Part shown: positions 27,169-31,112 of the stretch, piece after piece
How the letters are laid out: every line of letters begins with the position of its first letter
Numbering within the stretch: the first letter of the stretch is position 1
From: Candidatus Woesearchaeota archaeon
Lineage (GTDB): Archaea > Nanobdellota > Nanobdellia > SCGC-AAA011-G17 > GW2011-AR17
Assembly (NCBI GenBank): GCA_009691355.1
Contig: SICW01000001.1
Span: 1 to 40,612, forward strand
Length of the DNA stretch: 40,612 nucleotides
Direction of reading: 5' to 3'
The notes under the pieces: generated by a model
What the model saw: only the letters and a program-made list of their open reading frames with translations
Told to the model about the DNA's origin: nothing
Database searches by the model: none
Program-made: the position numbers and the translations under genes

Positions 27169-27189
27169 TTCCTTTCTTGGTTGATTATA

Positions 27190-27996
27190 ATGAACATCCA
27201 CGTACTCACAGAAAGGAAGGGCTCAAACCCTGGAGGAAAAGTCCACTTAGACTTAGGTCAGAGGAAGGGGGATTATTACTTTAAGTACTGCGTGGGAAAT
27301 AAGTCCGGTGAAGAAAGACTCCTTGCTGAACACCAACCGATATATGAAGCTGCTACCCTTGCTTGGACTGAACATATAGGACTTCACGTACCTACATTTT
27401 TTGTTCTTGTAAGAAACTCCCCCATGACTTTTTCTTATCGAACACCCGTACCGCGTTTAGATGCACAGAAGCCATATTATTTGCTTTCTCAGCTTGTGGA
27501 ATTACCTTGCGAAGTGGATGAGAAAAGACTGAGTGAAATTCTTGCTAAAGAGAAAGTGTATAGAGACTGCCTTGGAATTACGGATGTTTCTGGAAAAAGA
27601 CAAAACTATACCCACATACACAATGAAGCAGAGGATTATGCACTCTATATTGATCTAGGTTGTAGCTTTGTTCATGCGGTTGGAGGATTTATTATAAGAC
27701 GTAAACATAGTGCACCACCTGCAAAACGTGAACGAAAAAGAATGGAAAAAGCTTTGCAAGAACATGCACTTGAGACTCCGAGGGGAGAATTATTACGATT
27801 TTCAGAAGTCTATGAGCTTCTCTTTCAAACACCTATTCCTCTTGTGGATACCCAACGGGGTGTACTACGAAAAGGGACACTAGAATCTTTGTTACATCCA
27901 GATGAACAAGAATGCATCAGAGAAATAGTCTTCACAGAAATATATGAAACTCTTAAGAGACATAAAAAACTACATTCTCCTAAAATTATTTTTTAG
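27190..27996 (+). CDS. Atypical protein-kinase-fold (PI3/4-kinase-like layout) protein, putative
   Basis: The ordered motifs are a Gly-rich loop KGSNPGGKV, Lys in YYFKY, Glu in IYEAATLAW, a hinge-like YLLSQLVE, ITDVSGKRQN (Asp...Asn) and YIDLGCSF (DFG-like). Confidence 0.35.
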   Translation: MNIHVLTERKGSNPGGKVHLDLGQRKGDYYFKYCVGNKSGEERLLAEHQPIYEAATLAWTEHIGLHVPTFFVLVRNSPMTFSYRTPVPRLDAQKPYYLLSQLVELPCEVDEKRLSEILAKEKVYRDCLGITDVSGKRQNYTHIHNEAEDYALYIDLGCSFVHAVGGFIIRRKHSAPPAKRERKRMEKALQEHALETPRGELLRFSEVYELLFQTPIPLVDTQRGVLRKGTLESLLHPDEQECIREIVFTEIYETLKRHKKLHSPKIIF

Positions 27997-28013
27997 ATAT
28001 TTAGTTGAGGAAA

Positions 28014-28023
28014 ATTTATATAG
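28014..28023 (+). promoter_or_regulatory. TATA box ATTTATATAG
   Basis: It ends 24 nt upstream of the ATG at 28047. Confidence 0.45.
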
Positions 28024-28046
28024 CTACAGATTTTCTTAGACGTACA

Positions 28047-28763
28047 ATGAACTTCATCAGAAAAATTGCAGAAGGGAAAAGTGACGAATGGACGAAAAGA
28101 CAATTCACTCGTTATGGTATGGGGACATATGAACAAAAAGCACTTCTTCAAATAAGTAAAGGAAAAAAGGGAGGAAAAATTTCTTCCAGTTTTGAATTTG
28201 CTCCAGACTTTGCGTATGCACTTGCAGAAAGTGTGAAAAATAAAGTACAGGTCACTGGAGGTATTATTACCAAACAAAAGCTTACAGAAGAGGATGCGGG
28301 CTTTCCTTTTGCAGGGATGAAGCAATTTGCTGGTGTGAAAACATATTTGATTGATACTGATCTTACCAAAGCACAGATTCAAGGACTCTTTGGAAAATAT
28401 TCTTCTGGGCTTGTCCTTCTTTCTTTCAAAACAGATATGGGAGAATTAAAAACAAAAGTAAAAAGTCCTAAGTCTACGAAAGCAAAGATTGAGGGAGAAA
28501 ATGCAGAATTACCTAAGGCTGATTTTTGTAGTTTTAAAACAACAGATATGAAAATTCTAGAGGATTATGCATTTGATGTGGCGAAAGATTTTACGAAGGT
28601 GTTTATTATGCATAGTTTTGTTATTGAAAGTTTAGAGATTCCTAAACAATATGAGAAAGACTTTGTACTTGCTCGGCTTCATGCACTCAGAAAGGGAAAA
28701 TTAATAAGGGAGATTCACCTAGGAGAGAAGAAGATTGGCAAAGAATACACACTCTCGGTCTAA
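28047..28763 (+). CDS. Hypothetical protein (orphan)
   Basis: 238 aa from MNFIRKIAEGKSDEW. The ORF-track TTG start at 28005 would include the TATA box. I recognised no family motif. Confidence 0.5.
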   Translation: MNFIRKIAEGKSDEWTKRQFTRYGMGTYEQKALLQISKGKKGGKISSSFEFAPDFAYALAESVKNKVQVTGGIITKQKLTEEDAGFPFAGMKQFAGVKTYLIDTDLTKAQIQGLFGKYSSGLVLLSFKTDMGELKTKVKSPKSTKAKIEGENAELPKADFCSFKTTDMKILEDYAFDVAKDFTKVFIMHSFVIESLEIPKQYEKDFVLARLHALRKGKLIREIHLGEKKIGKEYTLSV

Positions 28764-28773
28764 GAAAGAAGAA

Positions 28774-29019
28774 GTGAAAAAAGAGCACGTTGTTGTACGT
28801 GCAAGTAGAGCTGTGTATTATGTTCTAGGGGCATTCTTTGAAGCTCTGACTAGCGATTTTCCGAGTAATGTACGAAAGAGGTATGCACGACCCCGAGATG
28901 AATATGTTGAGGTTAAAGTTCCTCGAGGGTATAAAGATACGAAAGGTGGACCAGAGTATAAAGACCTCTCTTCTACGAACGAATTCTCTGATTTTGGTGG
29001 TTTGCCTGGTTTTAAGTAG
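28774..29019 (+). CDS. Hypothetical small protein (weak call)
   Basis: The open frame 28735..29019 overlaps the upstream stop. A GTG at 28774 preceded by GAAAGAAGAA is a possible start. It could also be non-coding. Confidence 0.3.
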   Translation: MKKEHVVVRASRAVYYVLGAFFEALTSDFPSNVRKRYARPRDEYVEVKVPRGYKDTKGGPEYKDLSSTNEFSDFGGLPGFK

Positions 29020-29048
29020 CTACTTTTAAGGAGTTACAAAAAGGGAAG

Positions 29049-29058
29049 ATTTATATAG
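29049..29058 (+). promoter_or_regulatory. TATA box ATTTATATAG
   Basis: It ends 22 nt upstream of the ATG at 29080. Confidence 0.45.
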
Positions 29059-29079
29059 TCTTTTTTATGCTTAAATGGT

Positions 29080-29982
29080 ATGGTAAGCTCAAAAGTTGTG
29101 AAATGCCCTGGCCGTTTTAGCCAAACAAGAGAGAAGGTCTTTGAAGCAGTAGATGTTGCTTTAGAAGGAAGAATAAATGTCACTGAACATGACCTCGCAA
29201 CAGTGTGGGATCTCATTTCAGGAGACTTAGCTGGCCTTGATGGGAGAGATCCTTATTATGAGCCAACAGAAGATGTAAGTAGAACTCCTCCCCATGATAA
29301 TTACCTTTCTCTTGTTCCTCTTTTTCCAAGCACTTATACTTTGACACCAGAGATTCGAGAGAAACATGCACTTTCTCGAGGAGTCGATCCACGTATTGCA
29401 ATACAACTAGCGGCTATGGCTAGCTCTGGAAGAAATTTTTTTACAGGGCAATTAGGAAAAGATGCTGCTAAACTTCACGTTGATAAAAATGTTACTCTTT
29501 CAGGATATGTTATTGGATCAAATGTAGGAGTTGGTACATTATCAGATGGTGGACCAGAAGGAGGAGGCACACGATCCGACTCTCCTTATCTTATTGAAAT
29601 TTCTAAAAGAGAAGGAAGAGGGAGAGATGAAAGATTAAACCTGGCAGCAGTTGTAGGTTTCTGGGCTGAAGGAGATACCATGCTTGTTTCCCAAATGCAA
29701 TCTTGTAAAAATGCAACCCTTCCGGAAGGGCCGTACTTTGGATTAACTTGTGTTACTATTGCTGAGCGTGTTGCTCGTGAAATAGGATTTGAAAAAATAG
29801 CACTTTATACTGGAAGAGCGCACCCTTATTTCCTTGAACACCATGAGAGTTGGGCTAGAATGGGACAGCTCTTTGTTTGTATGTGGGATGGCTCAGCAAA
29901 AAAACTAGGATTTGATGGATCTCGAGTTCAAACGAGGACTTATACAAAAACTATTGGAACCGGAATTCGGGAGCGACTTTAG
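29080..29982 (+). CDS. Orphan protein, paralog A (unique N-domain plus GNAT-like C-terminal half)
   Basis: It shares VKC.GRF, DPY, LVPLFPS, TLSGY, G.G.RSDSP.LIEI, EGRG and L.SQ.Q.C.NA.LP with the next gene. The C-terminal pattern is strand, Q..., helix, GF..., HP.F, KK.G. That pattern resembles an acyl-CoA N-acyltransferase fold. Confidence 0.55.
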   Translation: MVSSKVVKCPGRFSQTREKVFEAVDVALEGRINVTEHDLATVWDLISGDLAGLDGRDPYYEPTEDVSRTPPHDNYLSLVPLFPSTYTLTPEIREKHALSRGVDPRIAIQLAAMASSGRNFFTGQLGKDAAKLHVDKNVTLSGYVIGSNVGVGTLSDGGPEGGGTRSDSPYLIEISKREGRGRDERLNLAAVVGFWAEGDTMLVSQMQSCKNATLPEGPYFGLTCVTIAERVAREIGFEKIALYTGRAHPYFLEHHESWARMGQLFVCMWDGSAKKLGFDGSRVQTRTYTKTIGTGIRERL

Positions 29983-30016
29983 AAACGTTTAAAATTAGGA
30001 GATAAAAATCATAACA

Positions 30017-30898
30017 ATGCCAGGCGAAAGAAAATCTGTGAAGTGTGAAGGAAGATTTCCTGAACTGAGAGAATATCTTTTTGGCACGCCAGTAGATATG
30101 GTTCTTGGTGAAAGAAAAACTGTTAGTGCCAAGGATCTTGATGACCTTTGGAGTTTGATTAAAGGAGATATCTACCAACATGATCTTAAAGACCCTTACT
30201 TTATGTCTCACTGTGATCTCGCAAGAAAGCAACCAGAACTACACCCTTATGCTCTTGTTCCCCTTTTTCCTTCTCCGGATTATATTCTTGCAGTACAATT
30301 GGTACAGCTATATACAATGAGCTTAGGTGTTTCATTTACTGTTTCTGAAAAAATGGAGGGAATGGCTCGACTCCCAGAACGGTTTCTTCTTGAAGAACTT
30401 AAACTTGAACCAAGATTAATTGAATTCCCAAATAGGGCTACACTCTCTGGATATGATTTACATACACATTTTGGAATTGGGACTATTAGCCTAGGTGGTG
30501 TAGAGGGATCTGGTATTCGTTCTGATTCACCTCATCTTATTGAGATTTATAGAAAAGAAGGAAGAGGTCAAAGAAATCTTGCTGGAGTTGTAGGTTTCTT
30601 GGTTCAAGATGAGGATATGCTTATCTCCCAAATACAAGCATGTAGAAATGCAGCTTTACCTAGTGGAGTTCCCTTAGGAGTTGGCTCTATTATTACTGCA
30701 GAACATATTGCGAAAACTCTCGGTTTTAAAAGAATGAAAATTTATACTGCTCGAGGTCACCCACATTTCAAAAAAGACCCTAACTCTTGGAGGAGAATGG
30801 GTAAGGAGTTTATAGAAATATTTGATACTTCCGTAAAAAAAATTGGAGGATATAAAGGTGATGGTGAAAAAGATCAAGTTTTTACAAAAACGCTCTAA
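30017..30898 (+). CDS. Orphan protein, paralog B of 29080..29982
   Basis: It is co-linear with paralog A along its full length, at very roughly 40-50% identity by eye in the C-terminal ~150 aa. An AGGAG lies 16 nt upstream of the ATG. Confidence 0.55.
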   Translation: MPGERKSVKCEGRFPELREYLFGTPVDMVLGERKTVSAKDLDDLWSLIKGDIYQHDLKDPYFMSHCDLARKQPELHPYALVPLFPSPDYILAVQLVQLYTMSLGVSFTVSEKMEGMARLPERFLLEELKLEPRLIEFPNRATLSGYDLHTHFGIGTISLGGVEGSGIRSDSPHLIEIYRKEGRGQRNLAGVVGFLVQDEDMLISQIQACRNAALPSGVPLGVGSIITAEHIAKTLGFKRMKIYTARGHPHFKKDPNSWRRMGKEFIEIFDTSVKKIGGYKGDGEKDQVFTKTL

Positions 30899-30899
30899 C

Positions 30900-31112
30900 T
30901 TATTTCACTGCTTCTTTAATATCTACAGCTTTGATTGTTTTTCTTCCCGCATGCTGTGCAAAACGTAAAGACTTCTCACCAATCTTTATCACCTGCTCTT
31001 CAAGATATTCTGCAAGCTTTTCTTTTGCATCATCTGAAACACGCTGCGCACCAGCTTTCTTGAGAAGCTTTTCCATTGCTGAAGCAGAAATAATTGCTTT
31101 TCTTTGGGCCAT
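30900..31112 (-). CDS. Archaeal histone (HMf family)
   Basis: 70 aa. The histone-fold pattern is AQRVSDDAKEKLAEYLEE...AQHAGRKTIKAVDIKEAVK. Confidence 0.85.
   Translation of the reverse strand: MAQRKAIISASAMEKLLKKAGAQRVSDDAKEKLAEYLEEQVIKIGEKSLRFAQHAGRKTIKAVDIKEAVK

Follow-up and report, generated by a model that had tools for sequence, protein, structure and literature searches.

A divergent GNAT-fold-like protein family of DPANN archaea, encoded as an old tandem pair in a Woesearchaeota genome

Described proteins built on the GNAT fold include superfamily members such as YhbS, NatD/Naa40, AAC(6')-Ii, RimI and the GNAT domain of PatZ; HAT1-type histone acetyltransferases of ~320 amino acids, which combine an N-terminal domain with a GNAT core; MshD, N-myristoyltransferase and FemX, which consist of two GNAT modules, one of them degenerate; and toxins of the TacT, AtaT and KacT type, which have ~160–180 amino acids and are paired with a small ribbon-helix-helix or DUF1778 antitoxin. 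Divergent GNAT-fold families are common, and a large proportion of the genes in the very small genomes of DPANN archaea has no assignment. Here we analyse two adjacent genes, A and B (Table 1), on a 40,612-nt stretch of DNA from Candidatus Woesearchaeota archaeon (contig SICW01000001.1 of assembly GCA_009691355.1, positions 1 to 40,612 of the forward strand; hereafter the window). The window is archaeal, encoding topoisomerase VI A/B, SRP54 and MetRS, and the source assembly comprises 662 kb in 56 contigs and is 78% complete. Judged on sequence, A and B are paralogs of long standing. Their family is small, has no entry in the catalogues searched and, where its members carry a source name, comes almost only from DPANN archaea. 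Structure prediction and profile comparison support a GNAT-like core at the level of the fold, and we rate the family as a new, divergent GNAT-fold family and not as a canonical GNAT member.

Compared with the GNAT superfamily (YhbS, 4rs2; NatD/Naa40, 4u9w; AAC(6')-Ii, 5e96; the PatZ GNAT domain, 9it0; RimI, 2cnm), A and B are alike in the predicted order of strands and helices, in the profile register from strand 3 to strand 5, and perhaps in the sequence KKLGF at the end of helix 4, which resembles the motif that we read as motif B. They differ in having neither motif A nor helices 1 and 2 between strands 1 and 2, and in carrying an additional N-terminal region of ~130 amino acids. HAT1-type enzymes (2p0w, 9mjg) are similar in size and in the combination of an N-terminal domain with a GNAT core, and gave the longest Foldseek alignments among the matches listed (161–162 columns). 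A and B also adjoin a histone gene in this lineage, and at another locus (L002) the pair adjoins genes for a SET-domain protein and Orc1/Cdc6. However, the HAT1 matches have a probability of only 0.54–0.66 with a root-mean-square deviation (rmsd) above 10 Å, the N-terminal region alone matches no HAT1 N-domain, and the histone of the window is a tail-less fold of 70 amino acids. A link to histones or chromatin is further weakened by the adjacency itself, which is confined to this one sublineage and, apart from the SET and Orc1 genes of L002, has no counterpart elsewhere.

By analogy with the two-module enzymes, diverged modules might act together, and the B-type lineage appears relaxed at its helix-4 motif; A and B are nevertheless separate genes with TATA-like boxes of their own, and most family members are single-copy. 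From GNAT-type toxins the pair differs: A and B have ~300 amino acids, the neighbour of each is a paralog, and we found neither a PADLOC match nor a small partner conserved across contexts.

Two paralogs of an uncatalogued family

The genes lie on one strand, separated by 34 nt. Their products align co-linearly from residue 5 to residue 292 with 117 of 291 positions identical (40%), 61% positives and 6 gap positions (BLASTP, E = 3 × 10−75), a likeness far beyond what chance would be expected to produce. A first-pass annotation, made from the letters of the window alone, had proposed a tandem, co-linear pair of this kind, and both open reading frames (ORFs) are as it described them. All 12 motif blocks that it listed as common to the two proteins are seen in the alignment: VKC(P/E)GRF, DL..W.LI.GD, DPY(Y/F), LVPLFPS, TLSGY, G(V/I)GT..S.GG.EG.G.RSDSP.LIEI, EGRG, A.VVGF, ML(V/I)SQ(M/I)Q.C.NA.LP, GF...YT.R.HP.F, SW.RMG and KK(L/I)G.

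It had also taken A to be richer in GC than B from two hand-counted samples. The counts were exact (0.500 at 29521–29580 and 0.433 at 30481–30540), and the difference extends to the whole genes (41.7% versus 37.9%, with 36.3% for the window overall). It sits at codon position 2 (46.5% in A, 38.1% in B) and not at position 3 (22.3% and 21.4%), and is therefore an effect of amino-acid composition. With third-position GC equal in the two genes and low, like that of the genome, we rejected a foreign origin on grounds of GC.

Neither protein matched Pfam, PADLOC or PHROGs at E ≤ 1. NCBIfam returned nothing for A and, for B, only a spurious match to YtfQ (10.7 bits, E = 0.18); searches of the PDB by single sequence and by profile gave chance-level rows with E of at least 0.037 (a baseplate protein at E = 0.037, TcmI at E = 0.92); and we found nothing on the family in the literature. 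The family thus corresponds to no described domain of unknown function in the catalogues searched. A word-indexed search of 5.8 billion proteins recovered 45 proteins related to A and 14 related to B; all are unnamed or hypothetical, and nearly all have 289–319 amino acids (one relative of A is a 183-amino-acid fragment). When 1.84 billion representatives were scanned in full by HMMER with the family profile, no more than 78 clusters reached E ≤ 1 × 10−3. The source names are archaeal (Woesearchaeota, Nanoarchaeota or ‘archaeon’) save for one ‘bacterium’, the contig of which bears archaeal histone and ribosomal genes; they point to Woesearchaeota/Nanoarchaeota-type DPANN archaea as the group concerned.

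Conservation within the family is strong. Across 44 sequences with a mean column identity of 45%, 23 positions are invariant: W43, Y59, P71, P80, Y143, G150, G152, G157, G158, G163, R165, D167, P169, L188, G193, F194, Q205, Q207, P215, G221, A232, P249 and D270. A further ~35 are near-invariant, among them K8, C9, G11, R12, F13, R17, H248, H254, S272 and K275. The B protein of the window retains all 23 invariant residues. Conserved core residues cluster together (Q205, Q207, P215, G221, H248, P249, D270, S272 and K275), and another cluster lies in the N-terminal loops.

More distant members take two forms, both also without a Pfam match. Proteins of the first form (350–425 amino acids) contain a long insert and retain C(x)GRF, DPYF and (L/M/I)(V/I)PF. 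Those of the second (~200 amino acids) correspond to the back part only, in the order (D/S)(A/S)P(Y/F), G..GF, L.V.Q.QG.K.A, AE..A, His, YD.SAK..GY, and several have an apparent N-terminal hydrophobic segment; the genome context of these putatively membrane-anchored relatives consists of one uninformative 2.6-kb contig. A separate metagenomic protein of 200 amino acids (P0109) carries the N-terminal motif block of the family (RRVKCEGRFHDLRQYLYG...DLWDCL) after a 126-amino-acid segment with a kinase-like glycine loop and lysine (IGSGTGRIVYDIDGQKVLKLAK), and may stem from a fusion, from wrong gene calling or from chimeric assembly.

A predicted GNAT-like core with a remodelled loop

We modelled A with AlphaFold2 from an alignment of 44 sequences. 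The model is a single compact globule (mean predicted local distance difference test (pLDDT) score 93.8, predicted TM-score 0.92) in which five helices (residues 14–124) are followed by strands at 133–135, 143–149, 154–156, 163–165, 170–178, 185–197 and 200–208, a helix at 220–235, a strand at 239–243, helices at 249–253 and 255–275, and a strand at 287–291. From residue 170 onwards the elements follow the GNAT order: strand 2, strand 3, strand 4, helix 3, strand 5, helix 4, strand 6. In a Foldseek comparison with the PDB, the 50 best matches, which are those listed here (348 lower-ranked ones lie beyond them), were all GNAT acetyltransferases, with probabilities of up to 0.99 over ~125–160 aligned columns. 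These include AAC(6')-Ii, YhbS, NatD, PatZ, SpeG, RimI, HAT1 and Gcn5, and no Fem, L/F-transferase, LuxI, MshD or N-myristoyltransferase structure is among the 50. Most of the high-probability named matches in a viral structure library were likewise GNATs or acetyltransferases (E = 0.004–0.005), interleaved with several low-probability rows of very high rmsd.

Profile comparison gave the same register. Aligned by hhalign against 20 PF00583 proteins from related genomes, which served as the canonical GNAT alignment, the family yielded a sole local alignment (A residues ~187–249) that placed its strand 3, strand 4, loop, helix 3 and strand 5 on the same GNAT elements (P = 0.017 with alignment A1; P = 0.0037 when 112 C-domains of the family were used). 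Aligned globally, YDxSAKKLGF (W269-D-G-S-A-K-K-L-G-F278 in A) fell, with low column confidence, over fY..klGF, which we read as GNAT motif B, the aromatic-x-K/R-x-G-F sequence with which helix 4 ends before strand 6; of the members outside the B type, at least 95% keep D270, S272 and K275. Together, the fold and profile data support a GNAT-like core at fold level, spanning residues ~131–292. The proposal of an acyl-CoA N-acyltransferase-like C-terminal half is supported by the model, the Foldseek matches and the hhalign register, and among the folds suggested for comparison (GNAT, FemX-type and L/F-transferase-type) only GNATs occur in the 50 PDB matches listed.

Several results weigh against taking this core as an acyl-CoA-dependent enzyme. 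The E-values for the fold are weak overall (~0.005–0.02); those of the PDB matches are 0.016–0.15, with target-normalized TM-scores of 0.3–0.5 for single-domain targets, and sequence-profile support for the GNAT register reaches only P ~0.004. No GNAT hidden Markov model in Pfam or NCBIfam detects A or B, and a six-frame search of the genome with PF00583 found five other GNAT genes and neither A nor B. The canonical motif A loop, Q/R-x-x-G-x-G/A, is not present between strand 4 and helix 3, and because of its absence coenzyme A (CoA) binding and the use of acyl-CoA are conjectural. For want of this sequence motif, we file the family as GNAT-fold-like and not as a canonical GNAT member. The place of motif A is taken by Q207-S-C-K-N-A-x-x-P-E-G-x-x-F-G221, which in the hhalign alignment is three residues longer than the canonical loop and sets only G221 on its last glycine; distant relatives have Q-G-x-K-x-A here.

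The front of the core also departs from the canonical arrangement: in the model of A, strand 1 leads to strand 2 without the intervening GNAT helices 1 and 2. Between the strands at 143–149 and 170–178 there are only the short strands (154–156 and 163–165) of a glycine-rich double hairpin, GxGTxSxGGxxGGGxRSDSP, and helices at 90–99 and 104–124 precede it. This glycine-rich loop, GVGTLSDGGPEGGGTRSDSP (A residues 145–174; 29512–29601), resembles the repeat ends GIGTIRDDGTGAGGTDDDTP in P0099 and P0111, giant proteins of 3,231 and 4,975 amino acids (E = 7 × 10−16 and 3 × 10−5 through 9–10 repeats). We read those repeats as Calx-beta-type and set kinship with them aside, the motif being short; the likeness is probably convergent, and a metal-binding loop common to both is conceivable.

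The N-terminal ~130 residues, which the first pass had not recognized, have no match in Pfam, NCBIfam or PDB sequences, and modelled alone they match no fold (Foldseek, best E = 4.4, probability 0.07). When residues 1–130 are modelled alone from 10 sequences, the pLDDT is 69, a drop to which the shallower alignment may contribute, and the most conserved segments, residues 1–14 (VKCxGRF) and 52–68 (DxxDPYF...D..R), fall below 50, having been above 90 in the full-length model. Because confidence in these loops falls without the core, we infer that they pack on it and help to build a pocket, and that the region is not an independent domain.

An old duplication with unequal rates

In a maximum-likelihood tree (LG+C20, 42 rows; a quick 76-row tree was similar), A forms a clade with P0002–P0005 and P0007 (support 100/98) and B forms one with P0122–P0125 and P0027 (98/93); the two clades and P0006 make up one group inside the family (95/77). 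As A and B fall in separate clades within the family, the duplication is old but internal to it, and the tree rejects a recent duplication. Two closer relatives, GCA_030697685.1 and GCA_023245755.1 (loci L039 and L040, the latter from GCA_023245755.1), have A followed by B in the same slot, and in both the order is a gene for 235 or 237 amino acids, one for 82 or 94 amino acids, A, B, histone and rpL3. Other arrangements also occur: a 517-kb contig has a B-type and a basal-type member in reversed order, two divergent members stand as tandem pairs in G190 and G382, and 7 of the 11 full-length family contexts examined hold a single copy.

The two copies have diverged to different extents. Identity between the window and GCA_023245755.1 is 95% for rpL3, 93% for the histone, 87% for a 252-amino-acid protein encoded upstream, 76% for A and 48% for B, with nonsynonymous divergence (dN) of 0.03, 0.04, 0.08, 0.15 and 0.48, respectively; the ratio to synonymous divergence (dN/dS) comes to ~0.16 in A and ~0.35 in B, at a dS close to saturation. 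Between GCA_030697685.1 and GCA_023245755.1, the two copies differ to an equal extent (59% identity for A, 60% for B). The nearest sequence to the window's B is P0122, an orphan metagenome sequence (65%). Within the A clade, the window's copy pairs with that of GCA_023245755.1; within the B clade, the representative of that genome's B cluster, P0125 (80% identical to the L040 B), instead groups with the GCA_030697685.1 copy. The B of the window is phylogenetically discordant and, given this grouping and its divergence, has therefore either been replaced by a divergent allele or been strongly accelerated.

B-type proteins retain the N-terminal motifs, the hairpin, QxQ and H248-P249. They are changed at S208 and F220, and their lineage varies at D270 (H or N in two), S272 (T or A in five) and K275 (S, I or V in five).

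Candidate activity and alternatives

The reading to which we lean, although it falls a little short of probable, is that the family of A and B consists of accessory enzymes that resemble acyltransferases and are built on a remodelled GNAT scaffold, with A as the conserved copy and B as a relaxed or replaced partner or variant. The core would take the acyl group of a CoA-type donor bound at the split between strands 4 and 5 and transfer it, and the longer loop that ends at G221 would substitute for the canonical phosphate loop. Catalysis would likely fall to His248, which follows strand 5, and/or to Q205/Q207, the QxQ pair on strand 4. The family-specific helical N-terminal region is predicted to cover the core and, with the glycine-rich RSDSP hairpin, could form the acceptor pocket. 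Because most family members are single genes, the basic unit is probably a protein acting alone or as a homodimer. A, the slower copy, would be the better candidate for the catalytic copy in this lineage, and B, with a helix-4 motif relaxed in its lineage and a sequence replaced or accelerated here, a candidate partner or specificity-variant subunit. To the points already set against this reading, two must be added. An all-versus-all BLAST of 10 family contexts found no neighbour common to them that would point to a substrate, and the window's own B retains D270, S272 and K275, so that the call of degeneracy rests on its orthologues.

An explanation that we consider unlikely but worth weighing is a GNAT-fold enzyme that does not use acyl-CoA. 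Its donor might be an aminoacyl-tRNA or an acyl carrier, in the manner of FemX, L/F-transferase, LuxI or N-acyl-amino-acid synthases, or it might catalyse another reaction on the GNAT scaffold. The pyrophosphate loop has given way to one that is longer and strongly conserved (Lys210, Asn211, Pro215, Gly221), and a bulky donor could sit in the large, basic, aromatic and conserved N-terminal region (K8, R12, R17, R68, W43, Y59). GNAT-fold enzymes with tRNA or acyl-carrier-protein donors lack the CoA loop. GNATs are also credited (PMC8072286) with succinylation, condensation, decarboxylation and methylcarbamoylation. Such a donor fits less well with the 50 PDB matches listed, all acetyl-CoA-type GNATs, with the retention of the motif-B-like KKLGF, and with gene contexts that link the family to no tRNA synthetase or acyl-carrier-protein gene.

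Loss of the cofactor motif could alternatively mean loss of catalysis. In that case the protein would be a GNAT-fold sensor, scaffold or regulator, with the N-terminal region occupying or gating the former active site and A and B forming a binding pair. The N-terminal conserved loops seem to need the core for folding, the B lineage varies at helix-4 residues D270, S272 and K275, and both genes evolve fast relative to those that flank them, all of which would suit such a role. The set of invariant and near-invariant residues is nonetheless more typical of an active site, including as it does polar Q205, Q207, R165, D167, H248 and D270, and dN/dS is well below 1 in both copies; we regard a non-catalytic protein as improbable.

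A variable slot and its neighbours

The acyl-transferase-like reading treats A and B as accessory genes, and this part of it draws on the locus itself. The region between a conserved gene for 94 amino acids and the histone gene (29019–30900 in the window) is variable among relatives. In G029 it holds a protein of 254 amino acids with an ..FGDGNKRTAR motif read as Fic-type (L029 11318–12146); in G270, four orphan ORFs, the first encoding 153 amino acids and read as nucleotidyltransferase-like (L030 9038–11695); and in G134 it is empty (L031 ~1900–2130). The slot is an accessory-gene hot spot, and A and B are accessory cargo and not core genes.

Table 1 Features of the A/B locus in the window
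Feature	Position	Strand	Description or basis
Paralog A	29080–29982	+	ORF, 300 amino acids; slower-evolving copy
A, family-specific N-terminal region, residues 1–130	29080–29469	+	five predicted helices and conserved loops
A, loop K8-C9-x-G11-R12-F13	29101–29118	+	conservation
A, loops D54..D57-P-Y59 and L78-V-P80-L-F	within 29080–29469	+	conservation
A, predicted GNAT-like core, residues ~131–292	29470–29955	+	secondary-structure order, Foldseek, hhalign register, invariant columns
A, R165-S-D-S-P169 in the glycine-rich hairpin	29572–29586	+	core element
A, strand 4, Q205-M-Q207	29692–29700	+	core element
A, long loop CKNATLPEGPYFG after strand 4, then helix 3 and strand 5	within 29470–29955	+	core element
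A, H248-P249 after strand 5	29821–29826	+	core element
A, helix 4, W-D270-G-S-A-K-K-L-G-F	29884–29913	+	core element; strand 6 follows
Paralog B	30017–30898	+	ORF, 293 amino acids; same architecture as A; faster-evolving, discordant copy
TATA-like box of A, TTTATATA	29050–29057	+	starts 30 nt before ATG; putative promoter
TATA-like box of B, TTTAAAAT	29988–29995	+	starts 29 nt before ATG, inside the A–B spacer; putative promoter
Genes with a TATA-like octamer (ATG positions)	1701, 6367(−), 10704, 14124, 23526(−), 29080, 30017, 31112(−)		
271-amino-acid orphan ORF	27181–27996	+	second, independent insertion
252-amino-acid gene	28005–28763	+	no family match; 40–87% identity in relatives
94-amino-acid gene	28735–29019	+	no family match; 49–56% identity where detected, not in G134
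Histone gene	30900–31112	−	archaeal histone
Ribosomal protein operon	from 31397		headed by rpL3/rpL4 (Pfam on syntenic loci)

Octamers of the class TTTAWAWW start 29 to 32 nt upstream of the ATG in eight genes of the window, that of the histone included. This spacing fits leaderless archaeal transcripts and suggests that leaderless transcription may be widespread in this genome. The box in the A–B spacer suggests that B can be transcribed on its own, and A and B probably each have a leaderless transcript.

The genes immediately upstream do not form a system with A and B, a possibility that we rejected as the 252- and 94-amino-acid genes occur in relatives without A and B (the former in G029, G270 and G134, the latter in G029 and G270) and the 271-amino-acid ORF is a separate insertion. 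That ORF is absent between the DegT-like and 252-amino-acid genes of G029 and GCA_030697685.1, and has no Pfam, NCBIfam, PADLOC or PHROGs match. The 252- and 94-amino-acid genes remain syntenic beside the DegT-like gene in relatives, and the product of the latter ends in ...SDFGGLPGFK in the three relatives whose sequence was read.

Elsewhere in the family, Pfam annotation of 28 flanking proteins showed unrelated housekeeping genes, and 7 of the 11 full-length contexts are plainly of this kind (ribosomal proteins, MutS, GatB, RNase P, PEPCK). The contexts of P0006/P0027 and P0085 have an integrase and VapBC nearby, that of P0085 also a DNA methylase. Around P0085, a distant member of 385 amino acids (L072–L074), lies what appears to be an integrated element: besides numerous small ORFs, the island carries an integrase, an N6/N4 DNA methylase, VapBC, a NUDIX protein and an SLT lytic transglycosylase, and it turned up on 25 contigs from many samples. 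At two loci, L037 (3040–4896) and L075 (2990–4795), a family member adjoins a nucleotidyltransferase protein of ~600 amino acids, the two proteins being 42% identical to each other. We rejected a link, as the protein is present in all 10 genomes tested and usually on another contig. Proteins of this kind (~600–620 amino acids; also at G000:C34:9770-11578) have an NTP_transf_2/Pol-beta domain at ~176–227, and each of the 10 DPANN genomes tested also has a paralog of ~270–320 amino acids.

Variability of the slot raises a further explanation that is compatible with any chemistry: that the family is mobile or variable-pool conflict cargo, serving in defence, in toxin-like modification of targets in a host or virus, or in symbiont–host interaction, with B as a swappable specificity cassette. 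Its distribution is indeed patchy: of 400 other genomes sampled from the phylum, 7 contain it, none of the 15 genomes of the same GTDB family has it, and two same-genus genomes, 94–100% complete, are without it. The alternative occupants of the slot, read as Fic-type and nucleotidyltransferase-like, the integrase and VapBC near P0006/P0027 and P0085, and the discordance of the window's B (48% identity, against 76% for A and 95% for flanking sequence) point the same way. We nevertheless hold this to be an improbable account of the family, given that PADLOC and PHROGs have no match for it, that most full-length contexts are housekeeping, that there is no small antitoxin-like partner, signal peptide or transmembrane segment, and that the closest relatives inherited the pair vertically in the same slot. 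Less probable still is a two-subunit DPANN acyl-transfer enzyme in which a conserved catalytic A is retargeted by a fast-evolving, partly degenerate B that recombination can swap, the N-terminal region building a new kind of pocket for acceptor or donor and the classical CoA loop having been given up; if true, it would amount to a cassette-style specificity system in symbiont–host or virus conflict, or one acting on the chromatin proteins encoded next door.

Significance for DPANN archaea

What is new here is an uncatalogued family with a remodelled cofactor loop, a glycine-rich RSDSP hairpin and an N-terminal region of ~130 amino acids without a structural match; the known part is the scaffold, which the model assigns to the very common GNAT fold. 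As it stands, the finding overturns nothing and opens no long-standing question. It places one orphan DPANN family on a known enzyme scaffold, and the history of A and B, an old pair in a hot-spot slot, with one copy relaxed or replaced and each with a promoter-like box of its own, may be of interest for the accessory genes of episymbiotic archaea.

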